A DNA stretch of 64,000 nucleotides from the NCBI GenBank assembly GCA_043771825.1, contig JAYVGV010000037.1:14130-78129 (forward strand). Direction: 5' to 3'. The translations under genes were made by a program, and so were the position numbers. Positions 1-64,000 of this stretch are shown piece by piece. Below the pieces are notes generated by a model. It ran no database searches. It saw only the letters and a list, made by a program, of their open reading frames with translations, and was not told the origin of the DNA. Source of the DNA: Candidatus Altimarinota bacterium. Its GTDB lineage: Bacteria > Patescibacteriota > Gracilibacteria > BD1-5 > UBA2023. Positions within the stretch are counted from its first letter, which is position 1, and each line of letters opens with the position of its first letter.

Positions 1-284
1 TGGAGTATTGCCTCATCACGCATGTGAGTATACTCTTCTTCATCTCGAAAGAAGCTATCAGTGATACAGGGGATTCCTCTTTCGAAGAGAGCCGAGAAGA
101 ACCCTCTGAGGATATCCTTCACGGTGTCGATGTCTCTATCTCTATGGTATCCAGAGAGATTCCATTTGATACTATCAAATCCAATATGATAGTATCCAGG
201 GAGATATTTTTGGAGTTCTTTTCGAAGAGTCGACTTTCCAGAACAGGAGTGCCCAGTGATGATGATAATATGTGGATGATTCAT
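1..284 (-). CDS. P-loop NTPase/kinase-like protein, N-terminal part only (gene runs off the left edge)
   Basis: ATG at 284-282 on the reverse strand, 12 nt after the cysS stop. N-terminus MNHPHIIIITGHSCSGKSTLRKELQKYLPGYYHIGFD contains a Walker-A GxxxxGK[ST] loop. The frame stays open to position 1. Track ORF 24..464(+) is its antisense shadow. Confidence 0.6.
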   Translation of the reverse strand, partial: MNHPHIIIITGHSCSGKSTLRKELQKYLPGYYHIGFDSIKWNLSGYHRDRDIDTVKDILRGFFSALFERGIPCITDSFFRDEEEYTHMRDEAIL

Positions 285-296
285 ATGTATGAAAAG

Positions 297-1805
297 TTAT
301 ACTTTTTCTACTCGCCATTTGCCACCAGCTTCGTCGATCATCTTCCATCATTCACCCATCAGTTCATCACGTATCCTATCAGCCTCTCACCAATTCTTCG
401 CTATTTTTGCATCGAGTCGATCGAGGGCAAGTTTTGTGATTTCTTCTGGGATCACTTCTTTTGATTCGAGAAGATCAAAGTCGAATAGTGCTATCACTTC
501 ATTCCAGCTTCGCAGGAGATCTACGAGAGATTTCGCTTCCTCGACTGAGAATATCTCCTCATCGATCCCACTATTTATATAGCTCTGGAATTCGAATATG
601 ATGGTCATGGCAGAGTTCGTATCGAAGTCGTCTTCGAGACACTCGAGGAAATCCTGCATGAATGCTTGTTGATTATCTCGGAATTCACGAGAAATATCAT
701 GGAACTTCATCTTTCCACGAGCATTCCGTTCATCACTTGCTTCTGGAAGATTTTCTCTATATCGACCGAGACGTTTCATCATCTCATCGAGTCAAGTGAT
801 AGTATTGATAGCTCCACCGAGACGATCGTGCGTGAAATTGAAGCTTTCTACATATTTATTCTGAAGAGCCATGAGTCGAAATCATCGACAGACGAATTTT
901 TCATCTATTGGCTTTACTTTTTCGATGATATCTCGCAGTGTATAGAAGTTATTCGCACTTTTTGCCATTTTCTTATTATCCACGAGAAGATGTCCTCCAT
1001 GAAGCCAATATTTTGCGAATTGCTTTCCTGTGAAGGCTTCCGTCTGTGCTATCTCATTCTGATGATGAGGAAATATCAGATCGACTCACCCCATATGGAT
1101 ATCGATCTGATCCCCGAAAAAGTGACGATTACAAGCACTACATTCGATATGCCACCCTGGTCTTCATTCGATATTCTTCTTTTCACCATCGAGAGTGATA
1201 GCGATCGTCCACTTGTTCTCACCATCAGATTCTCTATCGTATGCCTTCCAGAGGGCGAAGTCAGCTACCCGCTCTTTATCATATTCATCATTATCGATCC
1301 TGACACTCGAGATCATCCCCTTGAAGTCGAGGTGCGCGAGATGCCCGTACTTTTTGAACTTCGCTACACTATAATATATAGATCAGTCTTCTGCGAGGTA
1401 GGCATATCACTTCTTCAAGAGTCCATCGATGATCTCGCCCATATCCTCTATGAGCTCAGAGATAGGCTTGATATTATCAGCAGGGATGATCCCGAGCTTA
1501 CGACAATCTTCGAGGAATGCTTCTGTATAGAATACGGTGAATTCTTTCAGGCTCTTTCCAGATTTCTGACTATCTCGTATCGTCTTATCATCGATATCTG
1601 TGATACACATAGTCGTCTTCGCCTTATATCCGAGGAATCGCATACTTCGAACGATGAAGTCATCCATGAGGTAGTTGCGGAGATTGCCGATATGTGCGTA
1701 GTTATAAGGCGTCGGTCCACAGTAGTAGATCTTCACTTCATCTTGTTTGAGTGGCTTGAATGGTTCAAGTGTACGAGAGAGAGTATTATAGACGTGGAGA
1801 CTCAT
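297..1805 (-). CDS. cysS: cysteine--tRNA ligase
   Basis: Track ORFs 1407..1823 and 387..782 are in one frame with no TAA/TAG between them, only in-frame TGAs. Motifs: [45 protein letters not shown]. The tail RDELMGE[TGA]WKMID aligns its TGA with the Gly of E. coli RDRLNEMGIVLED. ATG at 1805, TAA at 297-299, 502 codons. Confidence 0.93.
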
Positions 1806-1922
1806 AAAAAAGAAGTAAAGCAACTGACAAAAATAACCTTATGAATATACCCGAAACTCTTGAAAAATCCACTTTTCTAGAGGAATTGATATTTGACATT
1901 TCACTATTTTATAAAATAAGTA

Positions 1923-1951
1923 TTGACGAATGAAAATATATATGCTATAAT
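1923..1951 (+). promoter_or_regulatory. sigma70-like promoter for the 1976 gene
   Basis: TTGACG (1923-1928), 17-nt spacer, TATAAT (1946-1951), 25 nt upstream of ATG 1976, in an AT-rich divergent intergenic region. Confidence 0.5.
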
Positions 1952-2590: not shown

Positions 2591-3027
2591 GGGGATGATA
2601 TAGGATTCGATAAGGAGACTCGTATGGTCTACCCGCGCTCTCTCGGGGCAGTCAGCCTCGTTATCAAATGACACACAACAGATGCAAAAACATCACCACT
2701 CGCTCGTCTTGCTGCTTCTTTCAAGAACGCAACACCCGCATTTGCTTTCGCTGCCTAACCGCTCGAAAGCGTAGCCTTGTCCTAGACATGAGTGCCGTAT
2801 GGCCTGCTACAACCTTCTTTTCTCGAAGCTTATAGAGGAGAGTCGTACTATAAGCCTCACTCTCTCAGACCCTTGTCTCTCGTAGGAGATGTGAGTATAC
2901 CAGAGACACTTCTCTCCATTTCTGTCGATCTTCTTGCAGGAGCGATAGTATCCAAGATCCACTATAGAGGGTAAACGCAAAGATAGTACCTCCTTACACG
3001 CGGGGGCGGTGCCCGCCATCTCCACCA
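2591..3027 (+). ncRNA. ssrA: tmRNA (transfer-messenger RNA)
   Basis: 5' GGGGATGATATAGGATTCGA. The 3' end CGCGGGGGCGGTGCCCGCCATCTCCACCA gives a tRNA-like acceptor (GGGGATG/CATCTCC with one G-U pair) and a T-arm. An internal tag frame ends ...PAFAFAA-TAA (TAA at 2756-2758). Track ORFs 2792..2974 and 2807..3160 overlap it and are spurious. Confidence 0.85.
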
Positions 3028-3173
3028 TACTTGATACAAAAGCCAAAATACTCTTCAGAAATTGAGAGTATTTTTTGTATTTTCTCATGTGAGCTATAAT
3101 TTTCAAAGCAAATTTGTCTTCTCTCCCTTTTTTCATACAATAATTTCGTTTTACGAGCATATTTTTTATTATT

Positions 3174-3773: not shown

Positions 3774-3776
3774 ATT

Positions 3777-4505
3777 ATGAAAAAATATCACACACCGAAG
3801 CGTATCCTCCTGAAGCTTTCCTGAGAAGCACTCGAATGAGAGCAATGATATGGTATCGATCCGAAGTTCCTCTCATTTCTCGCCAAAAAAATAGTACACC
3901 TCGTCAAAGTACAAAAACTCGAAATAGTGATCGTCGTATGAGGAGGTAATATTTTTCGAGGTATAGAACTCGAACAAGGTGGATTCGATCGTGTGACAGG
4001 AGACTATATGGGGATGATGGGTACTATCATCAATTGACTTGCTGTCGGAGAAGCGATAGAAGATGAGTGAGTCGATGTGCGTGTGACGAGTGCTATACCG
4101 ACCCAACGAGTCGCAGAAGACTTCATCCGGCGTAGAGCTCTCAGGCATATAGAGAAGGGAAGAGTCGTGATATGTGTGGGAGGGACGGGAAATCCCTATT
4201 TTTCTACGGATTCCTGTGCCGTACTTAGAGCACTAGAACTCGACTGCGATGTCGTCGTGAAAGCTACGAAAGTCGATGGTATCTACGATAAAGATCCGAA
4301 GAAACATGCTGATGCCGTACGACATGACTCTCTCCACCTTCATGAGGTCATCCAGAAAGATATCCGTGTCATGGATCAGGCTGCTATAGCTCTTGCTCAT
4401 GACGAAAATATGCCTATCTACGTCTGTAAGATCGAAGATATCGATCAGATATGTGGAGAAGATATTATCGGGACATTCGTCCATACAAATACAAAAAGAG
4501 GGTAA
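3777..4505 (+). CDS. pyrH: UMP kinase
   Basis: ATG 3777, same frame as track ORF 4077..4505. Six in-frame TGAs, each at a conserved Gly: LKLSGEALEGEQGYGID, VVGGGNIFRG (TGA 3939-3941), MGTIINGLAV. Other motifs: [28 protein letters not shown]. Confidence 0.95.
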
Positions 4506-6951: not shown

Positions 6952-9900
6952 TTATTTTAGCCAATCTGGTATATCATGACTATTTCCTGAAGGAGTCGAG
7001 TGAGTCTGTTTTTTCGTCTCAGACTTCGGTGATACTTTTATAAGAGGAGTCTTCTCAGCTTTACGATTCTGTTTGGCTACGGGTTTCACTTTCGATTTCC
7101 GTTCGTGTGGTTTCTCTTCTTTTTCTTTTCAGTCGGGAGATTCTGTGGTATCTATGGAGTTTCTGAGCCAGTCTGGAAGCTCAGCATCGGGAGATGGAGG
7201 AGGAAGTATCGGTGCAGTCGTATCAAGAGCATCTTCATCGGGATAAGTTTCAGGTGATTCTGATCCTACCGAACTATTTGGCTTGAGCCAGTCAGGTATG
7301 AGGTCTTCTTCTCCAGAAGATGGAGGTATGATTATAGGGTTCTCTTCTGCACTTTCAGAAACTATATTCTCTGCTAAAGCCTCCTCACCTCGCACTAGAG
7401 TGGCTTTATCCATGGTAAATGGATCTTCAATAAGTAGAGATTCTCACTGTGAAGGTATAAGGGGATCATTACTTGGAGTAGGGAGCTCTACTTCACTCGT
7501 ATCTGGGTATATATCTGCTGTGGTCTGAGTTGGGATGATGATATCAGTAGGGGGGGGCTCTCATGGTGTCGCGTTTGTGTCTTCTACCTGACTTAAAGGA
7601 TCATCTTTGGATCAGGATTTTATGATAATACTATCACTATCATCTTGACTCCATTTTGGTGTATCTTTTTGTATTGGCTTGAGCCAATCAGGGATAGTAT
7701 GGGATGTATCGGGAGTAGTATCAGAAGACACTTCTACCATAGGTGCTTCTGGTAGAGAAGACGGAGAGCTTGGTTTTTCCGCAGAAGATTCATTATATAC
7801 TCCGATAGAATCGAGGGGGTCACTATTGACGACTGTTTTCTCTTGTATAGGCATGACGATACTCGGATTTACGAGAGGACTATTCATAGGAGCTCCTCTT
7901 GTGCCTGATGGTATCCCAGTTGATGATTTTATATTTGTATTGGTATGAGCGACGGAATCTATGAGAAAGTCTTGGAATCCCATATCTCCTTTTTTTCTTG
8001 TGAATCGGTAGACGATAAATCCGATAAGGAAGAGTGCTAGTATTACGCCAATCACTATGATAAATATATTTACTGTACCACTGATAAATCCGAGAATGCT
8101 TCCACTGGTTTCTTTCTCTTTTACTATCGCAGAGAGATCTCCCTCAGGGATATTTTCCTGTCCACCATTCACGATCGTAAGAAGTTGACTTTTTATGATA
8201 AGCTTATTTTCAGTAGATATAGTAGTGTCTCCTTGTATTTTTTCGAGGATTTCCTTTCCGAATACTTTATTCTCAGCGAGTTTTCCAGGGTGTGCCTTTA
8301 TTTGTTCGACCCGTTCCATGATATAGGTACGATTCGCACTATCTGAGGGTATGAGTCATTCTATGACTCTACTTGCTACACTGATTTCGTTTGTAGCTTG
8401 AGCATCTCCTACAAGGATAAGGTCGATGATACCAGAAAGCTCAGTTTTTGTTGTATCCTCAAAATTCGTATTAGCGATTACTTCTTTTTGTATCGTGAGG
8501 AGTCCTTCTGTACGATCATGAATATCAGCCCAGTTTTCTATGAGACTATTATAGTATTGAGTAAAAATAATCCTATCTTCTGGTAAGAAACCACGTATTT
8601 TTGCTTGTAGTTTTTCTAGATTCTCTTTATCAGTCTTACTGAATGCTTCACTTCAAGTTCCGCTAATATTAGAAGGTGTGTCATCGCTTACTTCAGGAAT
8701 ATAGTCAAATATTACTTGTATATTTTTTGTTTTTAGTATCTTCCCATCATCACCTTTTATAGTGATTTTCATTTCTTTCTTATGTACTTTGCTTTCAGAT
8801 ATTCTCTCTATAGAGAAGATTCCTCCATCCTTTAAAGAAGGACTATCTTTATTATCTATATCATTGTCTTCGATAGCATCGAGATCACTATCGATTTTTG
8901 TGTCCGTATCGATTGCATAGGTACTACCACCATTTCCATGCATACTGATGAGAAGCTTATCTCCTGGACTCAGGATTTTTATCGTATCTCCTTCGATTGC
9001 TGGATATGACTGTATATTGATACTATCCGGTGAGCGAGCTACCTCTTCGATCATAGCTGGTGTGATCTCGATAGTAGATACCTCATTTGCTCATGATTTT
9101 ATCGTGAGGGTTCAGAGATATCCACTAGAAGAGAGTATAGCATTCGGAACACTCGTGCCATAGAGTGATGATGACTCGATCGATCAGAGACTCCATTTCG
9201 CAGTATCATAGGTTCACTTACTGGTATTTATGAAATAGGTCATATCACCGATGCGATATCCTATAGCATTTGCTTTAAGCTCATTTTTTATATAAATTAC
9301 TTGATATTTCGTATTTGAGACACCATTGTTCACTACTTTTACCTTCATATTATACTTTCCAGACTGCTTATATACATGACTTGCTCGTGGTTCTGTCATT
9401 TTTTGGTCGATGCGACTATCTCCATCGAAATCCCAGTAGTATTCACTTTTATCGGTGACATCTATATTGAGTATTGTTTTTGCTGCTGCAGAGAATTCTA
9501 CGGTTTCATCAGCTAGGAAGAATCCTCGATCTTTGTTGAGATTTACTATACTCAGGCTTATAAGGGGCATATTGATATTTTGGTCGTCGTTGGCGACGAG
9601 GAGGGGGAGTTGTTCGCTCTGGAGCTGACTTGAATCATATCGAGCACCATCATTATCTTCCACGATCACTCAAAAATAGTATTTCTCTGTGACATTAGGA
9701 AGTACAAAATTTGTAGTAGGGGATTGAGTGATACGTACGTTTTGTTTTTCAGCATCGTTCTCAGTGGTATAAAACCAGATATAAGATCGGATGACTCCAT
9801 CATCATCACGAGCGCCATTTGCGATGACATTCGCGATGATTTTTTGTGTATCTTTTTTGGTTGGATCGATAGTCGCAGTGACGGAAGTCACCTTTGGTTC

Positions 9901-12060
9901 TATATTTTTTATTTCGATATATCGAGTACTTGTATGAGAAGCTCACGTCCTATCACTACGCACAGTCAGCTCTATAGGGAAGCAGCCAAGCTCTGTAAAT
10001 TTCTCTGATGTAGAAGGTCAAGACTTGACTCGGTCCATATACCTCCATGTATAAGAGAGCCCAGATGAGTTACCATCTATATTGATTGAGTTGCCCCCAT
10101 CGATGGTAGTGCTGTCAGCACGATTGATGACGAAGGCCCCATCAGGATTCTCACATGCGCTCCCATCTTCAAATACACTCCCATTACTGCTTTTTACATC
10201 GATGAGTGCAAAAGGACGATCAGTATCAGTGATATAAATCTTTCGAGAGATACTATTTTCCTCACTTCCATCACCATTCTTCACATTTAAAGTAGCAGTA
10301 TATATGCCAGTTCTCTTATAAATATTTTGTATAAAGTCAGTAGTTCCATTGATCGTAGGACTTCAATCACCGACATTCCATTCGTAAAAACGAGCCTGTG
10401 GAGATCGCGCCTGAAAATTAATCATAGTTCCTATAGGGGCAGCACGAGGGGTAATGTTGACTCATACAGTTAGAGTGGAAGTGACATCGAAGTTTTTTTC
10501 TACGTTCGATACTTTTCCGAAAGCATTTGTGATCGTGAGCGAGACCGTATGAGCTCATTTTTCTGAGAAACTATATGTTCAGATCGCTCCTTCTTTTGTG
10601 ATGTCATTGAGTTCTATTTTTTCTCAGTCTATGAGCCACTCATAGGAGAGTCATTTTGCATTATTATTATCAGGATCGTAGCTTCGAGAAGCATCAAAAA
10701 GCATAGTATTCGGCTTTTCACTATTCAGGGAATGAGGAGTATCAAGATTGATGATCGGAGGACGAGATTCGATACTGATGACACGACTATCTGTATCTAC
10801 ATTTCCATTGGGACTTCGAGTCGTCAAGCTTACTATATATTGTCATACTTTTGTGAATTTATAGCTAAAGGTACTTCATTTTTTCGATGTTATTGCCTTT
10901 TTTCAAGATTCTATATCTTGTATTTCCCAGTTGTACTCTATATTCGTCATATTTGCTAAATATGATTTCGCACTCATAGGTATTTCTTCTCCGATAAATG
11001 CTGTTTCTTTCTCGAGTGATATCACTGCAGCAGGATCTCGTATGAGCAGCTGCATCTGCTTTCTGAAGGTATTCCCTTGGTTTGTAGTTATCTCAAGGCT
11101 TACTTTATAGCTCTCAGGATTGACGTAGAGTTGTTTTTCGAGTATAGGAGCTCCATCATATTCCATGATGTTTCCATTTCAGAAATCCCACTTCGTTTTC
11201 ACTATAGTTCCATTGCTCACTGCTCGTGAAGCGCTCGCATCAAAAAGGAGCCCGATCTTTCCAAGACTGGGACTGACCTTCAGCGTATCAAGGTTACTGA
11301 CATTCACTCAGTTTATGAGCAGAGTGATATTACCGAGGCGAGGCTTGACCTCTATATCTTTCGAGATTGATACAGGAGTGACATCAGGCTTTCATTTTTT
11401 ATTGAGACTTTGGGATACAACATCGAGGAATACTTGGTAATTTCACTCTTTAGCAAAGGTATAAGTAAAACTTGGACTTCTTCAGAGTTCACGACGTGCA
11501 CCTCATGCTTCTTTCATCCACCAAGTATAGTTATTATCTGGAATGTTGATTCCAGAAGGATCTTTCGCGCTTGCGAGGAAAGAAGTAGTAAGTGGAGCAT
11601 TACCACTTGTAGGATTTGCCTCTATAGAGGCGATGATCTCAGTGATGACTGCTTGTCCTATAAATGCAGAAACTTGAGTTACAGCATTTTGTACATGAGT
11701 CGAACTTGATTTATTTTTGGCAGCAAGATCGAGGTAGAGGTCAGCAGCCTTTTTGAGTCATTCATTCTTTGCACCATTATCACCTGAGTCAGGAAGACGT
11801 AAATAGGCTTCTTGTATGAGACTTCGGACATTTGAGATAGTAGAATCAGTGATAGTATTATTCACTCGGAATTCTCGTTCTATATCTTGGAGCGTTGATG
11901 AGATCTTCTGCTTATAATATACAAAGCTATTGGCATCATTCTCTATAGATGCTGCTATAGTTTGATTTATTATGCCTGATATATTTATACCAAATATCAT
12001 CACAAGAAAACTTATGAGTGTAATAATGGTCTTTATATATGTATAGGAGAAAGATTTCAT
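6952..12060 (-). CDS. giant PKD-repeat membrane protein (1702 aa) with PDWLK-repeat tail
   Basis: Ten track ORFs (11758..12060 down to 7129..7413) all lie in one frame. Line-by-line reading shows only TGA between them. First TAA at 6952-6954. N-terminal signal anchor, several PKD motifs (KWDF[TGA]NGN, SYEWLID, YYWDFDGDSRID), a TM helix near 7990-8080, then a low-complexity tail with four [IL]PDWL[KR] motifs, ending ...DIPDWLK. Confidence 0.8.
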
Positions 12061-12086
12061 AGAGGGGTTTCAAGATGAATTGAATT

Positions 12087-12527: not shown

Positions 12528-12588
12528 ATAGCTTGAGTATAGCATATCCAAAAAGAATATGCAAATATTGTACAATATCGCTTAATCA

Positions 12589-14001: not shown

Positions 14002-14130
14002 ATATGATGGTATTATAAGATAGATTTATGGTGAATATTTCTTCTCAGAAAATATCGATACATTCAGAGAATACTCTCGAATTTGTTTATATACTGTATA
14101 TATATTTTCCATAAAATCTAGTTTTCTCTT

Positions 14131-15612: not shown

Positions 15613-15673
15613 GAGAATATGTATTTTTGTATTTTTTATTAGTGTATCATACTTTTTTGCTTCTTGCAAATAA

Positions 15674-15700: not shown

Positions 15701-15722
15701 AGACTATCGAGAAGAATATATG

Positions 15723-16382
15723 CTAGAAATTTGACTTCCAGTTCGTCAGAGTACTATCGAGTATCACACTCTGTGCTCGACCATCTACCCATCGTACGAT
15801 ACTTCGTACCATTAAGATACCAGTCTGAGTACTTGGAGGAGGAATATCGATGAGAAGTTCACGAGTAAATATTGTTTTACAGCTTTTTTGTACAAAAGAA
15901 GTACACTGGGGTATCATCGTACCACTTTGACTATAAAAGCCGTTATTATCGAGATTGACTTGGTACATACTTTTATACGATACCCATACGAGTGGTGACA
16001 AAGTGGCTGCACCAGAGAGGAACCATGCCCCATTCTCCGCATAAAGTATGTATGATCCAGTCGAGATATATCATGGATTCGCTGGATAGGGACTCAGAGG
16101 ATTTCCTATACAAGAAGAAGAATAATCTTTCACTTTCCAGCAATTGATCTTATCACTCGAAAATCTGAGCCAGTTAGTATCCCGTATATTCGTCATACCC
16201 TCTACTCCTTCGCGAGCTATGTTTATCGCTTTTATCTTATTCTCAGTGTCTCGGGTATAGTTTATCCCTCAGCCTATCGTTTGAAGGAGTGCAGTGATAC
16301 CAAGACCAAGTATAGCAAGCACCACCATCAATTCTACGATAGTTACTCATTTTTTATTTCCGAGAATTGTGCCTATTCTCAT
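15723..16382 (-). CDS. type IV pilin-like protein (prepilin N-terminal cleavage/methylation domain)
   Basis: ATG 16382 to TAG 15723-15725 (219 aa). N-terminus MRIGTILGNKK[TGA]VTIVELMVVLAILGLGITALL is a class III signal peptide. The invariant -1 Gly is encoded by TGA at 16347-16349. Confidence 0.8.
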
Positions 16383-20019: not shown

Positions 20020-20025
20020 AGTATA

Positions 20026-22419: not shown

Positions 22420-22518
22420 TTTTATGCAAATCAAAGATCAAGAGAATAGTCTTGCCAAAGAGTGAAAATTTATATTCTCACTATTTCTTTCTATATGCAA
22501 GGGCTTTTCTCTCTAAAA

Positions 22519-49498: not shown

Positions 49499-49573
49499 TC
49501 CCCGATAGCTCAGCGGTAGAGCAACCGGCTGTTAACCGGTAGGTCGTAGGTTCGAATCCCACTCGGGGAGCCA
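49499..49573 (+). tRNA. tRNA-Asn (GTT anticodon), CCA encoded
   Basis: Cloverleaf: acceptor TCCCCGA/TCGGGGA, D-arm GCTC-AGCGGTA-GAGC, anticodon arm ACCGG-CTGTTAA-CCGGT, T-loop TTCGAAT, 3' GCCA. A TTGACT element at 49411-49416 may be its promoter. Confidence 0.9.
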
Positions 49574-49590: not shown

Positions 49591-49624
49591 AAAAGAGCAG
49601 TTCACTGAACGGCTCTTTTGTTTT
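49591..49624. terminator. bidirectional terminator shared by tRNA-Asn and hsdR
   Basis: AAAAGAGC-AGTTCACTGAACG-GCTCTTTTGTTTT hairpin. Overlaps the hsdR stop codon (49623-49625). Confidence 0.55.
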
Positions 49625-52574: not shown

Positions 52575-52591
52575 AAGTTTGAATAATTAGT

Positions 52592-53017
52592 TTATTGGAG
52601 TAGGTCAATAATCTTGAGTTGAAGACTTTCGTTATAGGAATCTTCATAAATAATTGAAGTGATTATTTCCAATAGATTATCTTGATTTATTTTATTATCT
52701 GCTACTGCTACGGCTATATTTTCCATTTCACAGATGAATTTTTCTACACAATAATCATAGCCATTTATCTCCAGAAAATATGCACCAAGAACAATCGATG
52801 ATCTTTTATTTGCATCTTCAAAGGCGTGGTTTTTATTTACAGAAAAAACAAGCTTGGTAAGCTTCTCCTCAAAACTAGGGTAGTAGTCATCATTTTGTAG
52901 CGTAGATAATGCAGATTCCAGATTTCAAATTTCTTTTACTCCTGGTAGTCATCAGCTTATCTCAAGAATCTTATCGTGTTCCCTGATTGCGTGAGTAATG
53001 TCGAAATAAATAGTCAT
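52592..53017 (-). CDS. doc: Doc-type Fic-domain toxin (death-on-curing family)
   Basis: ATG 53017 to TAA 52592-52594 (141 aa). ILEISGGLPGVKEIGNLESALSTLQ followed by NKNHAFEDANKRSS, which fits the Doc motif HxFx[DN][AG]NKR. Three in-frame TGAs, all plausible Gly. Confidence 0.8.
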
Positions 53018-53020
53018 ATT

Positions 53021-54025
53021 TTATCTATCTTTAAGGCGAATAAATACATCTTTATGTTCTTCTATTCTTTCTTCTAAGGTTTTACTCCTTTCTCAGAGAA
53101 ACTTCTCAAAGTCATCTCTTGGTATCGCTCGTATATATTCAGCAAGCTTCTCGTGTAGAGCATCACGGAAATGTATGTCTCTACTTGCCATTTTCATCCT
53201 TGCAGTTTCCAAGTAAGGCATTTGTGACGGATGATTTGAAAATTCTTCAAATATTCTATCTACTTCTTTTGGGGTAAGTCTTCTCTTTTGCTTCTCTGAC
53301 TCTTTTTTGAGTTCATACGCAAGACCAGTCTCATAAGATGATATTGTTGTGAGAACTTCACTATACATAGTTTCTCTCAGATTTTCTTTTTCAGAAAGTC
53401 GCAAGATAGCTTTATATTCACTGGCATCTTCCCGAAAAATACTTTCATAAATTCGATTTGTATAGATCGCATATTTTATGTTACCCATAGCCACATAATG
53501 ATCGAGAGCATCTGTAAATTCTTTTCTACACGAATGATCTCTTACGGCTGCTATGAGATAATCCTCCTCTCTTTGATTTATATACTTTGTGTTTCATCCT
53601 ACCTTTTCATAAATTGTATCGAGGACAATATCCAGCATTATCTTTCTCATCTCTCTTGCTCTTTCGCTTTCTACGAGGAGCATTCAGATATTGAGAAATG
53701 ATCGAAAATCAAACAATCATAGTACTGTGGTTTTGGTAGCGACATCAATGTCGGGACCAAACAGGTTTTTCGCATCAGAAAGCCTTTTCCCCGTAAGGAT
53801 TTCATACCCATTTTTGCGAAGTTCACCATCGTTTTGCTCCAGGTATCGCTCCAATGTTCGCTCATCTACTTCATAGAAGTCAGCGACTTGTTTTTTGGTA
53901 AATCGGTATGATCCTTCAAAGAGAATACCCATAATACCTATATGTTCTTGGATTTTTTCCAGAGCATAAGTATTATTGAGGATATTTGCACGGTCGATGC
54001 GGGAGTTCGTAAGATCTCGGTTCAT
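53021..54025 (-). CDS. HTH-containing protein upstream of doc (334 aa; antitoxin position, function unknown)
   Basis: Track ORFs 53717..54025 and 53093..53494 share a frame joined by TGAs. TAA 53021-53023, 3 nt before the doc ATG. N-terminal FTKKQVADFYEVDERTLERYLEQNDGELRKNGYEIL is HTH-like. Family not recognised with confidence. Confidence 0.6.
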
Positions 54026-54041
54026 ATAAATAATGCAAAGG

Positions 54042-55337
54042 TTATGAGATAGAGAGCTTGCCTGTCACTGCCTGATAGATGAGGCTGGTACGATATTCTT
54101 CGATGAGAGTGATTTCTTGTTCTATTTTATATATGGCAGAATCAATTTGAAAGGCTTCCTTTTTAATATATTCCACAATCGATTCTTGAGTTATGATAGA
54201 GGGAAGAATAAAGTAAGAGTTTTCAAATTCAGTTGTTGATAATTCTTGGAAAGTTGTTCATTTTCATAAACTTTGCAAGTATTCGTTATATGCAATAAAA
54301 TGAAAATATACATATTGATATATCACTCTTGAATTAACAATAAAAGCTTTGCATCCTTGATTTGTACACATATCTTTGGTAGTTATACCAAGCGATCATA
54401 TAGGTGCCCTACAACTCAAAATGATTGAATTCTTAGGTACAATAGTAGTACCACAATTTTCTAATCAAAGTTTTGTAATTTTTCGTCCTGATTGATACAA
54501 ATTTGGATCATCTGAATTTCCTAAATCCGTTGGAGTTATCCAATCAATATCTCAATCCCAATAATCTTTTTCTGAACTTGAAGGAGTGGATCAATTGATA
54601 ATTTTCCCAGTATATTTTAGTTTTAAAATTTCCCAATCCTCAGGAATCTCTCAGATCCACGGGATTTCACTATCTTTCATCTTCGCATTCTTATCTATTC
54701 CTTTCGTGACAGCTTGGTGGATGATAGATTGTTTTTGCTCTTTGAGGAGGTCGATGAGCTTTTTCTTGTTCGATATGAGAGTCGATATTTTCTCAGTTTT
54801 TGCGTCGAGGAAGTGGGCGATGGTGGATTGGATGAGGAGAGGTGGAGAAATAATCAGTCCGTTATCGATACTGAATTGATTGAAAATTTTTGCACCATAT
54901 ATATTCTCATTTGCATTGCTGTCAAAATAAGATTGCAGTGCGTAGTACCAAAAATCAAGATTGAGTCAATCTCTTGGTAATATTGCGAGTATTGCCTCAT
55001 TGGTGTAGGTATCCTCTGAGACGAATGCAAGTTGTCAGACTGATAGTTTGAAACTATAGAGAAGACTTCATCTTGGAACTATTCGCATATTTTTCTCCTT
55101 GATAGCAAGAGCAGATATTTTATTCTTTGATTCTCCTGTATATCTTCCACTCATATCAGAAATAGTGATCCAGTTGTATCCATTTTCATCATAGTACGAT
55201 CCCTTTCAGCTATCTGGAGTTCCTCCAGTTACATACTTGAAAACAAATTTCAATTTCTTCACTTCCCAATCCTCAGGTATCTCTCAGATCCAAGGAATAT
55301 TTGTTTTTTTGAGGGATGTTTTAGGAGAGTGGGTCAT
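54042..55337 (-). CDS. hsdS: type I restriction-modification specificity subunit
   Basis: ATG 55337 to TAA 54042-54044 (431 aa). I read every line: about 17 TGAs and no TAA/TAG, which is why the track shows nothing here. Duplicated IPWIGEIPEDWE[VI] at the start of each target-recognition half. TNQGCKAF. C-terminal EEYRTSLIYQAVTGKL. Confidence 0.88.
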
Positions 55338-55342
55338 AGTGA

Positions 55343-56194
55343 TTATTGAGCAAGTTGTTTGATATGTTGTATAGAGAGATTTTTTTCGAGTGTGATTTTT
55401 TGCTGTTCTGCGATTTCCGAGAGGATACCTGCGCGTTCTTCTTTTGTTTTCCCTTCATCGATAAATCGAGCATTGAGCGTCTCCATATTCGAGAGGATGA
55501 TGAGATCAGTGATGTCTGCTATATCTCGCATATTGAGTCATTGTTTTGCCTCTGTTTCATTTTCCTCCTCCCATTGTTTAGCAGTTTTCCCCCAGAGTAT
55601 CATATTGAGCATATCTGCTTCGTTCGCATATATGAGACCCTCTTGCCATTGTTTGAGATTTTTCCCTTCGAGTTTCTTTGCTATCGCATGAGTATGGATA
55701 CGATAATTTGTTTTGGAGAGGCTTCTTTTTATCTGCCATTCGAGAGATTGAGTCGTGGTTTTTTCGAGCTCTTTGAGTCTCTGAAATTCTTTGATGAGAT
55801 AGAGCTTGAACTGTGGAGAGAGCCATGTAGCAAACTCCATTGCGATATCCTTGTGAGCAAAAGTACCACCGTATCTTCCTGCACTCGATCGAATACCGAT
55901 AGCATTGACAGCATTGATCCATCGTGACGATGATACGACAAAACCATTGGTTCCAACTTCATTTTTAATCTTACTGAATTCCGTAAGATTAAAATCGGGA
56001 TTATATATTTCTTCCCAAGTTCATAAAAACTCAACAGTATACTTGGTTGTGAGCCAATGAGCGATAATGAGACCAGTATCTTCTCATTTGAATCGAGCCA
56101 TATCAGTGAGACAAATGAAATCGTCGTCATTCTTTCCGATATTTATATGTATCGAAATATCTTTCACTTGTACGATTTTTATTGCTTTTGTCAT
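55343..56194 (-). CDS. KilA-N domain-containing protein
   Basis: ATG 56194 to TAA 55343-55345, includes track ORFs 55538..55840 and 55343..55531. DDFICLTDMARFKGEDTGLIIAHWL...AGRYGGTFAHKDIAMEFATWLSPQFKLYLIKEFQRLKE is a typical KilA-N signature. Confidence 0.75.
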
Positions 56195-56208
56195 ATATCA
56201 TGGAAAAA

Positions 56209-57951
56209 TTAAGAGATAATATCTCGGAGAACTCCCTCTGTTTCTTCTTCGAGAGCGAGTATATCTTTCGTGATGTCTTCGAGACTTCGGGGTGGAGTAT
56301 ATTCGTAGAAGTATTTATTGAAGTTGATCTCATATCATACCTTCGCTTCCTTGTCACTGATCCACGCATCGGGGGCAAATGGGAGGACTTCTCGTGCGAA
56401 GTATGTCCCTATATCTTCTTTGAGTGGGATATTTTCCTTGTCTCGGAGATCTGCATCTGGTTCTGGTTTTCACTTTTTGCTGATGACATTGCCTCCCTCA
56501 TCTCGACGAGGTCGTTCGACAACGACCTGAGTGTATCCGAAGTCTTCATTATCGAATACCATAGAGTATTCTGAATCAGTGAATGTATCAAATAGTGAGT
56601 ATATCTCTTGGATATGTTTATCTCGTATTTCACTTCTCTTCTTTCCGAGGCTCTTCGTCATCCGCGAATAGAACTCGCTACTTGTTGCATTGATGAGCTG
56701 GATTTTTCATTTTTTGTGAGCGGGTTTGCGGTTGGTCAGTATCCAGATATATGTCCCGATACCTGTATTGTAGAAGAGCTCTTTCGGAAGTGCGATGATG
56801 GCTTCGAGATAGTCATTCTCGATGATATGACGACGGATCTCACTCTCACCACTTCCTGCATCTCCAGTAAAGAGAGCAGAGCCATTGTGCACTGAAGCAA
56901 TACGAGTTCCGAGAGGTGTATCGTGCTTCATCTTCGAGAGCATATGGAGGACAAAGAGGAGTTGTCCATCATTGATACGAGGAGTTCCGACTGAGAATCG
57001 TGGATCGAGGATTTCTTTTTTCTTCCCATTGGCGAGCTTGTCTTCATCGGTTTTCCAGGACTTACCGTAGGGAGGATTGGTCAGGATGAAGTCGAACCTA
57101 TCATCAGGGAATCCGTCGTTCGAGAGTGTAGAGCCAAATGCAACCTGATTATCTCGTTCTCACTTGAGGAGCATATCTGCCTTACAGAGAGCATATGTCT
57201 CAGGATTGATCTCTTGTCCAAATGTGAATATATTGGCAGTTGAGTGGATCATACTCTCATCTCATTGGATGAATTCTTTGGCAACGGAGAGCATACCCCC
57301 ACTTCCGACACACGGGTCATAGATAGAGAGTGGCTTATTTTTTATCTGATCTTGCACTGGGAGGAATAGGAGATTGGTCATTAGTCGGATCACTTCACGA
57401 GGTGTGAAGTGCTCTCAGGCTTCTTCGTTGTTTTGTTCATTGAACTTGCGTATTAGCTCTTCGAATACATATCCCATATCGTGATTGGAGAGATTTTTCG
57501 GAGAGAGCTTATCGCTGGCATCAGAGAACTTCTGGATCAATGCGAAAAGAATATCTGACTCTTCGAGCGTCTGGATCTGATTTTCGAATTTGAATTTCTG
57601 GAGTATATCTTGGATATTGGAGCTATATCCATTCAGATACTGCTTGAAATTGGATCTCAGATTGGGTGCATCCAAGAGAAGAGTCTTGAGTGTGAATGGG
57701 GAAGTATTATAAAAAGCATATCCCGTAGCTCGTTCGAGAATCGGCTCGATATTGGTGATCTTATTTTTGAACTTCTCATTTTCAGCAAGTACCTTGTCTT
57801 TGGTATCGATGAGCTCACTATCGATGCGAGTGAGGACAGTCATCGGGAGTATGACATCACGATACTTTCATTTTACATATATATCTCTGAGAATATCATC
57901 AGCCACTTGCCAGATGAAATTCACTATAGTCGAATTGTTCTGAGAGGTCAT
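56209..57951 (-). CDS. hsdM: type I restriction-modification N6-adenine DNA methyltransferase subunit
   Basis: ATG 57951. Track ORFs 57415..57843, 56707..56943 and 56470..56661 are in one frame joined by TGAs. Motifs: NFIWQVADDILRD, GEHFTPREVIRLM, YDPVCGSGGML, FILTNPPYG. TAA 56209-56211. Confidence 0.92.
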
Positions 57952-58366: not shown

Positions 58367-59869
58367 ATGCTTATGTCATCACAATTTTTCATCACTACAC
58401 CCATCTATTATTCGAATGGTATACCCCATATTGGACATGCCTATTCTTCTCTTCTTGCTGATATTCTTGCGGCTTATAATCGCTTAGAAGGCAAAGAAAT
58501 CAAATTTTCTACAGGAGTCGATGAGAATTCTCAGAAAGTCGTGGAGTCTGCACAGACACAAGGTATGGAGACGATGGTGTATGCGGATATGATGGCAGAG
58601 AAGCACAGAGCTGTCTGGGATGGTATAGGTATACGGTATACTGACTTTATCCGTACTACAGAGTCACGTCATCAGACATTGGTCCAGCAAGTCTTACAGA
58701 AATCATTCGATGCGGGAGATATATATGAAGGAGTATACGAGGGGATGTATTGTGTGGGATGTGAAGCTTTTAAGAAAGCGACAGATCTGATAGAAAAAGA
58801 TGGAACAATGATATGTTTAGATCATCCAAATAAGTCACTTGAGCATTTGAAAGAGAAGAATTATTTTTTCAAACTCTCGAAATATCGAGATCGACTTCTC
58901 GAATTTTATGAGACTCATCCTGATTTTATCACCCCACATAGCCGCTATGCTGAAGTCCGAGAATTTGTGAAAGCAGGACTCGATGATTTTTCTATATCTC
59001 GGGAGACTAATAAGTTTGGTATACCACTCCCATTTGATCCAGCTCAGGTGACCTATGTCTGGTATGATGCGCTTTTTAATTATATCACGGTCTGTCTTGG
59101 TGAGGAGGAAAAATGGTGGCCAGCTGATCTTCATGTGATTGGAAAAGATATCGTGCGCTTTCATGCTATTTATTGGCCAGCCATGCTCTGGAGTGCTGGA
59201 TATGAAGCTCCAAAACAACTTCTCGTGACGGGACACTTTACTGTCGATGGACAGAAAATGTCGAAGACTATAGGGAATGTCATAGATCCAGTAGAATATA
59301 TAGAGACATATAGTCGGGATATGCTGATACTCTACCTCTTTAGTGCTTTTCCTATCGGTGAAGATGGAGACTTCGATCGGAGTGAGGCAATCCTCCAGTA
59401 CAATGCAAAACTCTCGAATAATCTCTGAAATCTACTAAATCGCTCTCTCACTCTCGCACTGAAGCTTGAGGGAGGAAAAGTATGATCGTATGAGGAATCT
59501 ACTATATCAGGGAAGCGAGATGACTATATATCGAAGTATATGTGGTATATGAAGATGTATGATCTCAAATGAGCACTTGATTCGAGCTTTGCTTTCGCCA
59601 CAGAGCTCAATCAATATATCGATATGATAAAACCATGGAAACTTGATCCATCTCTTCCTGAAGAACGTATCATCCTCGATCAAACACTCTCGACCATCAT
59701 GATATGACTTGCTTATATCGGGTATAATCTCTCTCCATTTTTCGAGACAAAAATGAAAGAAATGCTCGATCGTATCGGAGTAGGGAAGTGATGGGAGGTT
59801 GCTTATGGATTCATCGTGAGTGAGAAATGAGAGCCACTCTATATGAGGCTTGATATAAAAAAAGAATAA
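58367..59869 (+). CDS. metG: methionine--tRNA ligase (short form)
   Basis: Track ORF 58367..59428 continues through a TGA (59426-59428, giving LSNNLGNLLNR) and five more TGAs to TAA 59867-59869. Motifs: TTPIYYSNGIPHIGHAY, KMSKTIGN. Confidence 0.93.
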
Positions 59870-59916
59870 TTTTCGGTCACTTGGAGAGCCTTATAATCAA
59901 CCAACCTCTTTCCTTT

Positions 59917-60501
59917 ATGTCGCACTCTGTACCAAAAAATGCGAAAAAAGTATTCTCTTGAATCCGTATGGATGTCTATCAGTGGGATCAAGAACTCTAC
60001 GATGGATCTATAAAGTGTTTTGAGCGAGCTCAATTCCTCGATGGAGCATTCGTCATCTGAATCCTTCCAAATGGGAAAATACTCATGACAGAGCAAGAGC
60101 AACCATCACGGGATGAACCTTTTTTTTCCCTCCCAGGATGAGCCTTCGATACTCCAGATGAAAATCCTCTCGAATGTGCTCAGCGTGAATTTCTGGAAGA
60201 GACGGGATATGAGAGCGATACATGGGAGCTCTGGTTTGTCTTCGAAGGTACGAGTAATATACTCGGGAAGACATACTTCTATGTTGCACATAACTGTAAG
60301 AAAATACAGGATATCGTCCCAGATGGAGGAGAAAAAATAAATGAAATATTCGAGCTTGAGTTCGATGAATTTTTGGCTTTTGCAGAAAATCCATATTTTG
60401 TACATTGGCCACTTTTGAGATATCTTTTCAGTGCGTTGCTTCATAGAGAAAAATACGATGAACTCAGAATGGCATTCCATCTAAATTCGAATAATTCCTA
60501 A
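59917..60501 (+). CDS. NUDIX hydrolase
   Basis: ATG 59917 to TAA 60499-60501. Nudix box LPG[TGA]AFDTPDENPLECAQREFLEETGY (TGA 60139-60141). Confidence 0.85.
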
Positions 60502-60547: not shown

Positions 60548-60573
60548 AAGAATCGAGATAATTTTTTCTCAGT

Positions 60574-62271
60574 TTAGAGTTCGAGTATTTTCCAGCCTGA
60601 GCTATCTTGTGCTGCAGTCAAGATATGACTATCATAGCCAAATGCTACTTCTGTACTGACATCTTTCCATGTTCACGATAGGAGAATTCCATTTTTTCTA
60701 TATGTATAGAATCATGTAGATGGATCTCGCTCTATAAAAAGATAACTGCGAGGGTTTGTCGTATCAAAAAATACATAATCATATCCCACTCTACTGGCGG
60801 TATATCCAGTATTTTTTATGATTTCATCAGTATTACGGTATATCTTCCATATTCCATCTTTTTTTCATGCAAATACGATCGATCCTCCATCAGCTCATAG
60901 GGTCGGATTCATGTAGCCCTGAAGTCCACAGAGATTGCCTTTGTATCGCGTGAATAGGCAGTAGCGATCTTCTCCTATCGGTCTCCCGAAGTATGCGTAT
61001 GATCCTCCATCTTCTTCGAGGAATATCTCACGAACTTCAGTAAGATCACGAGAGACCACTTCCATATCATGGATTATTTTTTTGATCCCATTTTTCTCTG
61101 TGACATAGAGAAAGTGAGAACCATTGGATATGTAGGATCAAGAAATATATTCTTGAGGGAGTATTCCTACTAAAACACCATTTTTTATGATTGATTTTTC
61201 TGATCCTGAAGATACGAGTGCTACTATACTCTGTCAGTTTGAAGAGAGAGTAAGGTTCTCTATTTTTGTATACGATGGTTCAAGAGATACTCCATTTTTT
61301 ACAAGATATCTTTCTCCTATTTTCCCTGTAGTCCAGATCAGAGTACTTCTATCTTTTGAGAGTACAAGAGGATTTCCCAATATTCCTTTATACTCGATAT
61401 TTCTTGATCCATTTTCGTATATGATATGTATCTTGCCTCCTTCTTTATATACGATAGATTTTTCTCATTCTGATATTCGAGATCCGAGCAGGAGTCGCCC
61501 ACCAGAATATACAGAGTTATGAGTATCTCTACTATAGATACTCCCTTCCATGAGAAAAGGAGTCTGTCCAAGCTTCAGTGTTCCGGTGGAGATCATACCT
61601 TTTTGGACGAGCTTCCAGCTCACCCCAGATCATGAAGATATACTGGTGAGTAGACTATCATCACCTCGATCATAGAGAAGTGATGGAAGTGTCTCAGAGA
61701 GAGCTACAGAGCGTACTCCACCTGAGAGTGTATAGATCTCTCCACTTATATACATCCGAGAGAGTATATCATGGCTCTGTCCACGAGTGAAAAATGAGAG
61801 TGATGAAAGTATCAGTATGCCAGCTATACATGCCAGTGCAAATCCTCAGACCATCCCGATGATCGTGTCTACTGCATCAGAAAATTGGGTCTCTTCTTGT
61901 ATGAGGTCACCCCGTCTATAGCTCAGAAGTAGTAGTATAGAACCGATAATGAGAAATATCCATCACCAGCTCATACCAGATGCCATCTCTCCAGTCTTCA
62001 TATTGGATATCCGACCCATCAAAGTTATAATCCCGAGTGCGATAATGCCGATGATCGTCAGGCTGACACTGATCCTATATGATGACCATTTCCGTGTCGA
62101 TGCAAGTGTAAAGGCGAGGATCAATGCGATCAAGATAGCATAAGCGATCCACCGCATATCCGTCATGAGATACGAGAGGAGGATATCCCCTGAACGTGTC
62201 CCTGGTCCGACGAGACCAGTGAACACACTGATAATCCCGAGAAACGCTATATGTGTGCGTGTAAGCGACAT
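60574..62271 (-). CDS. polytopic membrane protein with C-terminal beta-propeller-like repeats (565 aa)
   Basis: Track ORF 61963..62271 extended through about 12 TGAs to TAA 60574-60576 (every line checked). Five or six N-terminal TM helices, then repeated strands with KNG/DGG turns (SIVYKEGGKIHIIYENG, YLVKNGVSLEP, SIIKNGVLVG, GIWKIYRNTDEI, FYTYRKNGILLSG). Confidence 0.7.
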
Positions 62272-62381
62272 AGAAGTATATTATACGATATACTACACAT
62301 GATATAGTTTTTCTGTAAAATGCAAGGAAAAATCCTTTCCAACATACAAGGACGATATTTTTAGTATATTCTTGAGACATA

Positions 62382-64000
62382 TTATATCTTCTCTGGAGTT
62401 TTTTGAGAAGGTGACTTCATGAGGTATGTAAAATTATCTTTATTTAATATTGATCATCCATTATTTTCTATGCTATATTTCCTGAGAGAGTTGATTATTT
62501 TTGGGACACCATTTGATTCGGATCGCATAAGATCCATGCTTTTCTCAATGCTTGTAAGCTTATCGATCTCTGTTCACGAGATGGTATCTTGGATAACACC
62601 GAGATTTTTTAGCATTTTTTCCCATTGCTGTCATTCGATTTTTTCTTTTCCGAGAGAGCTATTGATATCTTCTGGGGTTAGCCATCTATTACCGATCTCT
62701 GGACCATTTTGACTCATAAGAAATGCATATACTTCATCGATACTTCGAAATTGGGTAATTCAGAGTCATGCTAACCCATTGAGATTTTGTCTGGTATTTG
62801 CCTCGAAATTTTCAGAGCTTGTTTCGATTTTTGGATTGGGATTATATATCTTTTCTAATCGGGACTGTTCGGTATATTTTTTCTGTAGTTCGATGATATT
62901 CACTTTTTCTCCAGAAAAATAGTCAGTCAAACCTTCAGCGATCTTTATCTCCTCTCATTCCATACGTGTCTGAGGTCGAAAAATATCACTGTATGCTGCT
63001 TTTTCATAGAGAGGAACGAGCCTTTCGCAAGCTTCTTTCTTTTGATCGAGATTCGCATCTTTTGATCGAAGTGTAGTCATGTATTCATCGATTGTAACTA
63101 GAGATAATTCTTGTTGATTGATCGCAGAGAGATTTGGGCGTATTGATTTATACAGATCAGTAATCTCTCGCTCTTTATTTGTATTAAAAAATTTTACTGA
63201 TTCGAGATCTCACTTGATTTTTGCTTGTCGCTCTTGCTCTGCCGTATCAGGGATATCTTGGGTGACTGATAAGATACCACGTATTTTCATCACTCGCGGA
63301 GGACGTCTCTCCATATCGATCGTATGTGTCACTTCTTTACCATCGAGACTCTTGAATATGAGAGTCTCTCCACGACGTTCTACGGGGATATCTCATCTCC
63401 CACCAGTGATCGCTTTCGAGGCATCGAGTACCATTCGCTGAGTCTTATCTGGCTTATCTGCGATATATTGCTCGATATCTCTCGAGCGAAAAGGAGCAAG
63501 CACTCATCATTCTCTCGCACTGGCGCGAAGGTCACTGAAAGCTCTTTCGGCATCTGAGAGTTTTCACTCTGGAAGTCGAGTTTTGATCGCTGTCTCCGTC
63601 CGAGAATCCGTAAGGTAAAATGTATCGACAAGATTCGTGACCTGGGGATTCGATCCACTCGCTATCACTGCATCGAGATTTTCTGGTGTGATACCAATAT
63701 TCTTCGCGATATTTGCTTTGATATTTTCAGGAAGAGGAGTACTCGCTTTTGCTTTTGCAAGTTCTTCACTCACTACGGTCGTATCGAGGGATTTTACTTG
63801 TTCGAGTCTTTCACGGAGTAATTTATTTTCTTTATTTTTGTTCTCATTTTCTACATTTGTAGAGTTGTTATTACGTCATACTTCCTTGATACTAATTCCA
63901 TATTCACCCGCAAGGGTTTCTTGTATTTTTTTATCTCTATCGGCATTTCCTATATTTTTTTCTTTTGCCTCTTTTGCTATATCCTCCAAACTGATAATAC
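62382..64000 (-). CDS. hypothetical protein, C-terminal 539 codons (start lies beyond the right edge)
   Basis: One reverse frame is free of TAA/TAG from 64000 to TAA 62382-62384, with about 12 TGAs. Contains track ORF 63564..63773. Charged and helical (KEAKEKNIGNADRDKKIQETL...). No family recognised. Confidence 0.55.

Follow-up and report, generated by a model that had tools for sequence, protein, structure and literature searches.

Which genetic code should be used to read the 64-kb stretch of DNA analysed here (the window), and what does TGA stand for in its genes? The initial annotation had proposed that TGA is a sense codon that fits glycine. We conclude that the window almost certainly belongs to the chromosome of an uncultured member of the Gracilibacteria (BD1-5) whose genetic code is NCBI translation table 25, with UGA as an ordinary glycine codon and UAA and UAG as the sole terminators.

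TGA as a sense codon

The status of TGA as a sense codon was borne out by coding density, ORF lengths and a shuffle control. Once TGA is taken as sense, the coding density of the 64-kb window is ~94% and the longest ORF has 2,392 codons. Counted from stop to stop with TAA and TAG as sole stops, 39 ORFs reach 300 codons or more, with 2,429 in the longest; 200 base shuffles of the window gave a mean of 0.01 such ORFs and a maximum of 349 codons. When TAG or TAA is taken as sense instead, the longest ORF stays below 500 codons. The three giant ORFs proposed earlier are indeed present, at 6952-12135 (5.2 kb), 41611-47493 (5.9 kb) and 26118-33296 (7.2 kb), and the description of the DNA as AT-rich holds in a moderate sense only, because the G+C content is 40.6%.

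The 32 curated genes contain 385 in-frame TGAs, or 20 per 1,000 codons, and TGA makes up ~22% of the glycine codons of the window. These genes end with TAA (28) or TAG (4) and never with TGA, as had been claimed for the reconstructed genes. Homology runs through the TGAs in PyrH, CysRS, ABC-F, MetRS, ValRS, Lgt, Nudix and HsdM, and the lengths of PyrH, MetRS and ABC-F (Table 1) agree with those of their homologues (566-612 aa for the ABC-F orthologues). Outside the protein-coding genes, the window holds one tRNA and a full-length tmRNA, whose tag frame, derived from the alignment together with the list of ORFs, reads AKTSPLARLAASFKNATPAFAFAA and terminates with TAA. Ahead of the 1,960-aa repeat protein, for which no Pfam match was found, lies a 449-aa paralogue of another gene of the window (24713-26062).

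Table 1. Features of the window, with in-frame TGAs and supporting matches
Feature	Coordinates	Strand	Length	In-frame TGAs	Evidence or remark
Whole window	1..64000	.			Chromosomal DNA, translation table 25, stops TAA and TAG
cysS, cysteinyl-tRNA synthetase	297..1805	-	502 aa	8	PDB CysRS E=7e-80
tmRNA	2591..3027	+			Rfam RF00023, 49.9 bits (gathering score 47)
pyrH, uridylate kinase	3777..4505	+	242 aa	6 (3822, 3837, 3846, 3939, 4035, 4068)	PDB UMP kinases E=3.5e-73
PKD-domain membrane protein	6952..12060	-	1,702 aa	30 (longer model, 6952-12135)	Pfam PKD_4 E=2.5e-43, PKD E=1.1e-41
Type IV pilin-like protein	15723..16403	-			Pfam N_methyl E=5e-6
Prepilin peptidase (A24 family)	18467..19438	-		6	Pfam A24_N_bact E=1.4e-23
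M23 peptidase	22495..24552	+		15	Pfam Peptidase_M23 E=1.7e-21
Gly/Asn-rich repeat protein	26118..33296	+	2,392 aa	42	C-terminal Peptidase_S74 chaperone domain, Pfam E=4.6e-14
valS, valyl-tRNA synthetase	34284..37100	-		6	PDB T. thermophilus ValRS E=6.5e-176
lgt, prolipoprotein diacylglyceryl transferase	39349..40116	-		5	PDB E. coli Lgt E=1.6e-39
Gly-rich repeat protein	41611..47493	+	1,960 aa	68	ORF call
ABC-F ATPase	47542..49347	-	601 aa	14	PDB YheS and YbiT E=3e-61
tRNA-Asn(GUU)	49499..49573	+			ARAGORN; Rfam tRNA 69.9 bits
Type I restriction-modification locus	49623..57951	-		in every gene
hsdR	49623-52574	-			Pfam HSDR_N, SWI2_SNF2
Fic/DOC	52592-53017	-			Pfam Fic
Gene of the same locus, no assigned function	53021-54025	-
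hsdS	54042-55337	-			Pfam Methylase_S
KilA-N	55343-56194	-			Pfam KilA-N
hsdM	56209-57951	-			PDB type I M subunits E=4e-30
metG, methionyl-tRNA synthetase	58367..59869	+	500 aa	6	PDB MetRS E=4.6e-127
Nudix hydrolase	59917..60501	+			Pfam NUDIX E=4e-12

Residues found opposite TGA

The proposal that TGA fits glycine rather than tryptophan was evaluated by tabulating the homologous residues for each TGA column. For eight proteins (PyrH, CysRS, ABC-F, MetRS, Nudix, Lgt, ValRS and HsdM) the comparison was made with PDB homologues from standard-code organisms. By hand tally, Gly occupies ~70 of 112 cells (~63%) across 44 aligned TGA columns. Trp was found in none of the ~112 aligned cells and Cys at no TGA column of these alignments. 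In PyrH, four TGA columns carry Gly in four or five of the five homologues, one carries Ala in all five and one is variable. Half or more of the aligned homologues have Gly at five of the eight TGA columns of CysRS. Gly is also present in ValRS and IleRS alike at three of the five aligned columns of ValRS, at three of the four of Lgt, and in every homologue at two of the four of MetRS. The glycines covered by TGA include those of Walker A, the ABC signature, the HxGH-region, the Nudix box and the UMP-kinase GGG.

Nearly all motifs listed in the initial annotation were recovered with TGA in frame (x): pyrH VVxGGNIFRG (3939-3941, +) and LKLSxEALEx (3822-3824 and 3837-3839, +), the ABC-F Walker A motif IVxPNGVGKST (49240-49242, -), the MetRS motif NNLxNLLNR (59426-59428, +), CysRS HMGxVDLIFPHH (1086-1088, -), M23 TTxAHLHLE (23920-23922, +) and PKD WDFxNG (11179-11181, -). 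In the Nudix-box motif LPGxAFD (60139-60141, +) the TGA falls on the Nudix-box glycine, and all three PDB ADP-ribose pyrophosphatases have PAG opposite the PGx of the window. The prepilin motif KKxVTIVELMVV has its TGA (16347-16349, -) at the -1 residue preceding VTIVELMVV, with Glu at +5; Gly is the established residue at -1 of class III signal peptides. The ABC-F signature was the exception: the literal LSGxE is absent, but TGA does lie within both actual signature motifs, AVSGxERT (48871-48873) and GLSxGERS (47935-47937). In addition, both Walker A glycines of this protein are encoded by TGA, the one at 49240-49242 being the first.

A codon alignment of the ABC-F gene, comprising the window, 26 other full-length Gracilibacteria orthologues and four standard-code outgroups, provided a direct comparison with the regular glycine codons. 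In-frame TGAs occur in all 26 orthologues, each of which has the expected length and a TAA or TAG stop, and the TGA columns of the window hold TGA or GGN in these other Gracilibacteria. Per gene, the sum of TGA and GGN is steady at 40-53, with TGA alone ranging from 1 to 40. At the 86 columns that are invariant among the four outgroups, the 126 TGAs stand opposite Gly (94%) or Ala (6%), and the figures for GGA are equal. In this alignment, TGA is thus interchangeable with GGN among the Gracilibacteria orthologues. The same exchange of TGA and GGN is seen at equivalent repeat positions within the giant repeat proteins (26118..33296 and 41611..47493). About one third of the TGA columns are at variable positions, where the homologues have D, S, K, N, Q, P or A. 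Any glycine codon behaves in this way: Gly makes up 59% of the partners of GGA and 54% of those of TGA in the ABC-F orthologue comparison.

Alternative codes and the lineage of the organism

Reading TGA as tryptophan (translation table 4) has in its favour that TGA clearly is a sense codon, and that a public protein collection has W at the TGA positions of the organism's PyrH and Lgt; the latter is the model choice of a gene caller and not biology. As outlined above, however, no TGA column of any solved-structure homologue holds Trp. In ABC-F, a Trp codon is the partner of TGA in ~1 in 10,000 pairings among the Gracilibacteria orthologues, and Trp accounts for 0.6% of the partners in the standard-code outgroups. 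Moreover, with TGA counted as Gly the residue composition has 9.0% Gly and 1.1% Trp, whereas counting it as Trp would raise Trp to 3.1% and place it in Walker A and other invariant glycine positions. Conserved tryptophans are in fact encoded by TGG, for instance in CysRS RPGWHIEC and ValRS QLWWGHQIP; UGG still stands for tryptophan. The table 4 reading is thus extremely improbable and, going by the column tallies, already refuted. Even less credit, practically none, can be given to the standard code with TGAs as true stops, to be explained by pseudogenes, sequencing errors, programmed readthrough or selenocysteine. Table 11 still gives short ORFs in the window, and a standard-code gene caller ends the MetRS at its first TGA (59426-59428), yielding a 353-aa product that is on record in Logan SRR23617232. 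Nevertheless, every one of the 32 genes contains in-frame TGAs, past each of which homology continues, independent genomes have TGA in the same columns, and an independent ENA assembly contains the identical contig: the window sequence recurs unchanged within the metagenome scaffold BUSI22-1_SAMN19433711_METAG-scaffold_28 of ERZ28573557 (100% over the 14.5 kb overlap). Housekeeping genes, four aminoacyl-tRNA synthetases among them, cannot all be pseudogenes. Selenocysteine sites usually align with Cys, yet Cys is absent from the TGA columns of the solved structures and makes up 0.2-1.5% of the partners among the ABC-F orthologues; selenocysteine was rejected on this basis and because 385 UGA sites, present in all genes, are not rare. 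The standard-code reading is therefore already refuted as well.

With UGA as glycine, the organism could still belong to the Absconditabacteria (SR1), since the recoding is common to both clades (PMC8629427) and database labels of MAGs do not equal phylogeny. The initial annotation had left the choice between the two lineages open, and its proposal agrees with the labels of the closest ABC-F relatives. A search for ABC-F loci in GTDB contigs, with one genome per species, yielded 29 close loci, whose best segments are 44-87% identical. Their record titles name Candidatus Gracilibacteria in 22 cases and Peribacteria, Patescibacteria group or Candidatus Altimarinus in the other seven; none of the 29 is titled Absconditabacteria. 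The arginine codons point the same way. CGA and CGG are reported to be read as Trp, on top of UGA as Gly, in the Absconditabacteria and by prediction also in some Gracilibacteria (Shulgina and Eddy 2021, PMC8629427), whereas no second reassignment was seen in the window. In the window CGA outnumbers every other Arg codon (10.5 per 1,000 codons; CGG 2.7 per 1,000), the two codons lie on conserved arginines (PyrH GGNIFRG and DFIRRR, ABC-F SHDR, MetRS SISR), and CGA falls for 100% on outgroup-invariant Arg columns in the ABC-F alignment. The reading of CGA/CGG as Trp was rejected given the abundance of CGA and these positions. Record titles and similarity, together with the placement of CGA/CGG on Arg, thus favour the Gracilibacteria, and an Absconditabacteria origin seems very unlikely.

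Decoding of UGA and relation to the known code

Published work on the clade suggests how UGA may be decoded as glycine. A dedicated tRNA-Gly with anticodon UCA would read the codon, and this tRNA would retain the glycine identity elements G1:C72, C2:G71, G3:C70 and U73, so that the normal glycyl-tRNA synthetase could charge it. Release factor 2, the recogniser of UGA, would have been lost, with RF1 serving UAA and UAG. No tRNA(UCA) was found in the window (ARAGORN), in a further 6 kb of the scaffold or among 30 related loci, which is uninformative because there is one such gene per genome; a release-factor gene is absent from the 64-kb window as well. An unrelated contig with TGA as Gly (L122) does carry a tRNA(UCA) with Gly identity elements, next to a sigma-70 gene that has TGA on invariant Gly positions. 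It has been reported that Gracilibacteria and Absconditabacteria read UGA as Gly and have the expected tRNA-UCA-Gly, and that the two Gracilibacteria-labelled genomes without this tRNA encode RF2 instead and retain UGA as stop (PMC8629427).

Among the known codes, table 4 resembles that of the window in that UGA is sense and UAA the preferred stop, but differs in the meaning of UGA, for no TGA column stands opposite Trp. Its users are the Mycoplasmatales, the Entomoplasmatales and several insect endosymbionts. Table 25 shares with the window the in-frame UGA on glycine positions of conserved genes, UAA and UAG as sole stops and UGG as Trp, and the nearest relatives of the window are Gracilibacteria MAGs that likewise have in-frame TGAs. 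No difference from this code was found, and the G+C content of 41% is inside the published range of 21-53%. The code, listed as the Candidate Division SR1 and Gracilibacteria code, was established in 2013 (Rinke et al. 2013; Campbell et al. 2013; as cited in PMC8629427), and the recoding of UGA to glycine in a BD1-5 bacterium is the subject of PMC4032931. The assignment of UGA to glycine in this organism is thus correct, already known and not new; its main value lies in the proper annotation of the window, for which its practical value is high.

Reading frames and the amino acid at UGA

UGA encodes glycine in the organism from which the window derives, and translation stops at UAA and UAG. The longest stop-to-stop ORF in the 64,000 bases (40.6% G+C) measures 471 codons under the standard code and about 2,430 codons when TGA is taken as sense; if TAG or TAA is given that role, no ORF reaches 500 codons. 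When TGA-sense ORFs are chosen so that none overlap, they span 94% of the window. With TAA and TAG as the only stops, 39 ORFs reach 300 codons or more, compared to a mean of 0.01 in 200 base shuffles, where the longest ORF reached 349 codons. The 32 genes that were curated after antisense ORFs had been dropped, and identified on the basis of Pfam and solved-structure matches, hold 385 in-frame TGAs in 19,228 codons (20 per 1,000) and end in TAA (28) or TAG (4), never in TGA. Counted as Gly, these TGAs give 9.0% Gly and 1.1% Trp among the residues; counted as Trp, they give 3.1% Trp.

The initial annotation had listed TGAs at invariant glycines of familiar motifs. All five that were quoted with coordinates proved to be coding-strand TGAs whose peptide context is precisely as described, and the motifs quoted without coordinates could be located as well, except that a literal LSGxE (x denoting the TGA residue) is absent: the signatures of the ABC-F protein read AVSGxERT and GLSxGERS.

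Eight proteins, with X at each TGA, were aligned to PDB chains from standard-code organisms and the residues were counted by hand. For PyrH, four of the six aligned TGA columns carry Gly in 4-5 of 5 homologues, one carries Ala in 5/5 and one is variable. At five of the eight CysRS columns, including those of HxGGxDLxFPHH and GRPGWH, half or more of the aligned homologues carry Gly (the other three are variable). Seven of the ten ABC-F columns correspond to Gly, among them those of the two Walker A and the two signature motifs (three variable). The remaining proteins show the same residue at two of four columns in MetRS (two variable), two of three in the Nudix hydrolase (the Nudix-box glycine among them, one variable), three of four in Lgt and three of five in ValRS, and three of the four HsdM columns have Gly in 1/2 homologues. 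Over the 112 aligned TGA cells in total, Gly occurs about 70 times, Ala about 10 times and Trp never.

A scan of the ABC-F protein against one-genome-per-species contigs yielded 29 close loci, 22 of which are titled Candidatus Gracilibacteria and the rest Peribacteria, Patescibacteria group or Candidatus Altimarinus. Each of the 26 full-length orthologues contains between 1 and 40 in-frame TGAs and has the expected length, with TAA or TAG as its stop. In the codon alignment, 10 of the 14 TGA columns of the window's gene are filled in the other genomes almost only by TGA or GGN, and the remaining four are variable or mixed. When the Gracilibacteria sequences are all taken together, the partner of a TGA is a Gly codon in 52% of pairings, another TGA in 27% and a Trp codon in about 1 in 10,000. 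The sum of TGA and GGN per gene stays between 40 and 53, with TGA alone ranging from 1 to 40, and the TGA share of the Gly codons drops with rising G+C of the locus (Spearman -0.78 for 27 Gracilibacteria among the orthologue loci L002-L033), from about 90% at 24-25% G+C to 3% at 47%. TGA behaves as an AT-rich synonym of GGN, and in the giant repeat proteins of the window the two swap at the same repeat position. At the 86 columns that are identical among four standard-code outgroup proteins, 94% of the 126 TGA occurrences fall on Gly and 6% on Ala, a profile shared by GGA; the other codons with enough data follow the standard code, save for conservative hydrophobic swaps.

Rival readings, origin and decoder

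These column tallies refute a table 4 code, in which UGA would specify Trp. Real stops, pseudogenes, readthrough or selenocysteine are refuted likewise, as the TGAs are too numerous and too widespread, homology continues across them and they are conserved in independent genomes; for selenocysteine in particular, Cys occurs at no TGA column of the solved-structure alignments. A second reassignment was considered because, according to the Codetta paper (PMC8629427), Absconditabacteria translate CGA and CGG as Trp and some Gracilibacteria do so with CGG. It was rejected for the window, since the two codons occupy conserved Arg positions (GGNIFRG and DFIRRR of PyrH, SHDR of ABC-F, SISR of MetRS). 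CGA, the commonest Arg codon (10.5 per 1,000 in the curated genes; CGG 2.7 per 1,000), falls for 100% on Arg among the invariant columns of the outgroup alignment. The window thus differs from the Absconditabacteria code in that CGA and CGG encode Arg, and this normal usage, together with the titles of the closest relatives, makes it unlikely that the organism belongs to Absconditabacteria rather than Gracilibacteria. The window is 100% identical over a 14.5 kb overlap to scaffold BUSI22-1_SAMN19433711_METAG-scaffold_28 (144,826 bp) of ENA ERZ28573557. The closest ABC-F protein in the species-level genome set has 78% identity over its full length, with a partial match at 87%, and therefore the species is probably absent from the representatives.

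Following the literature on the clade (PMC8629427), UGA would be read by a tRNA-Gly(UCA) that carries the standard glycine identity elements, and RF2 would be lost; recoding of UGA to glycine has been described for a BD1-5 bacterium (PMC4032931). A tRNA(UCA) was found neither in the window nor in 30 related Gracilibacteria loci, where ARAGORN called only tRNA-Asn, Phe, Gly(UCC), Ile and Pro, and 6 kb of extra scaffold beyond the window contained no tRNA genes. A pattern scan of IMG/VR for Gly-type tRNA(UCA) returned 34 matches, most of which are not tRNAs according to ARAGORN and many of which resemble 3' tRNA fragments; three are real tRNA(UCA) genes. The latter, on viral contigs L051, L060 and L065, combine the UCA anticodon with a glycine-type acceptor stem (GCG...CGC, U73, CCA), and their carriers may be phages that either infect code-25 hosts or recode UGA themselves. 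The same scan of metagenome contigs gave 101 matches. Many are tRNA-Gly(UCC)-like with a 6-nt CTTCAA anticodon loop in which one C is missing, present on dozens of contigs among L072-L151 (records beginning with VOF, BNJ or SCP); these loops are probably homopolymer errors in the assemblies and could pass wrongly for UCA anticodons.

A few genuine tRNA(UCA) genes were found on TGA-sense metagenome contigs, such as L122 and L126. On L122 (Ga0228670_1000016, 25% G+C) a 74-nt tRNA(UCA) with glycine identity (G1-C2-G3, C70-G71-C72, U73) at 1552-1622 (-) adjoins a sigma-70 gene in which seven TGAs lie in frame, two of them on invariant Gly within the two stretches best conserved relative to solved sigma-70 factors, LIQEGSLGLI and LEEIG. 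The contig is an example of a table 25 decoder beside a gene that needs one; as the scanned tRNA genes are not tied to the window's genome, they support the mechanism in general only. It is highly improbable that decoding departs from textbook table 25, be it through context-dependent dual use of UGA (mostly Gly, some termination) or through a decoder other than tRNA-Gly(UCA) with RF2 retained: the window shows no sign of either, its genes ending in TAA or TAG and its TGA profile being indistinguishable from that of GGA.

Gene content of the window

The genes related to translation and core metabolism encode CysRS, PyrH, ValRS, MetRS, the ABC-F ATPase, Lgt, a bacterial sugar transferase and a Nudix hydrolase. 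The envelope and pilus are represented by a pilin-like protein, a prepilin peptidase and two M23 peptidases. The window further contains PKD-domain proteins, two giant repeat proteins rich in Gly, a type I restriction-modification locus into which Fic and KilA-N genes are inserted, a tmRNA and one tRNA-Asn.

Features of the window with their coordinates
Feature	Coordinates	Strand	Details
tmRNA	2591-3027	+	Tag peptide AKTSPLARLAASFKNATPAFAFAA
pyrH	3777-4505		
Envelope/pilus cluster	12087-19438	-	T4SS_pilin-like protein, solute-binding protein, M23 peptidase, pilin with N-methylation motif, two unknowns, prepilin peptidase
TGA-sense ORF, putative gene	19441-20025	-	194 codons, six TGAs, no Pfam match; fills gap between prepilin peptidase gene and gene 20026-21891
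Two paralogous cassettes	24713-33296 and 40240-47493	+	449-aa protein without Pfam match, then giant Gly/Asn-rich repeat protein (2,392 and 1,960 aa)
lgt	39349-40116		
Type I restriction-modification locus	49623-57951	-	Fic/DOC protein and 334-aa unknown between hsdR and hsdS; KilA-N domain protein between hsdS and hsdM
MetRS fragment on record	58367-59428		353 aa
Dropped antisense ORFs	1904-2446, 2994-4148, 4233-4484, 21911-22396, 34003-34287, 55729-56130, 59839-60480, 63637-63999		Real features there: tmRNA, HTH gene, pyrH, KilA-N gene, Nudix gene

The tmRNA is detected by Rfam at 49.9 bits, little above the gathering score of 47, and is not called by ARAGORN; its tag is long (24 aa) and the frame terminates in TAA. 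At its end the first giant protein carries a Peptidase_S74 intramolecular-chaperone domain, a type of domain that occurs in phage tail spikes, and the cassette products may serve an episymbiont as surface or attachment fibres. In CPR bacteria, type IV pili are believed to be important for attachment to the host.

Public records and use of the result

In a public collection of 15 billion proteins, PyrH and Lgt of the window are stored as exact TGA-to-Trp (code 4) translations, so that the invariant GGG of UMP kinase appears as WGG; the Gly translations of both are absent from it. The MetRS on record is cut at the first TGA. This collection therefore mis-translates code-25 organisms in a systematic way.

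That Gracilibacteria read UGA as glycine has been known since 2013, and the code has an official NCBI translation table; for the window the finding is correct but already known, and adds one more Gracilibacteria genome to those with this code. The value of the result is practical: ORF tracks, gene calls and flags of an 'unusual non-coding region' that rest on the standard code are artefacts in the window, and re-translation with table 25 is needed before other findings in it are judged. At the same time, the ABC-F comparison provides a clean illustration of how TGA and GGN exchange with genomic G+C while total glycine remains constant.
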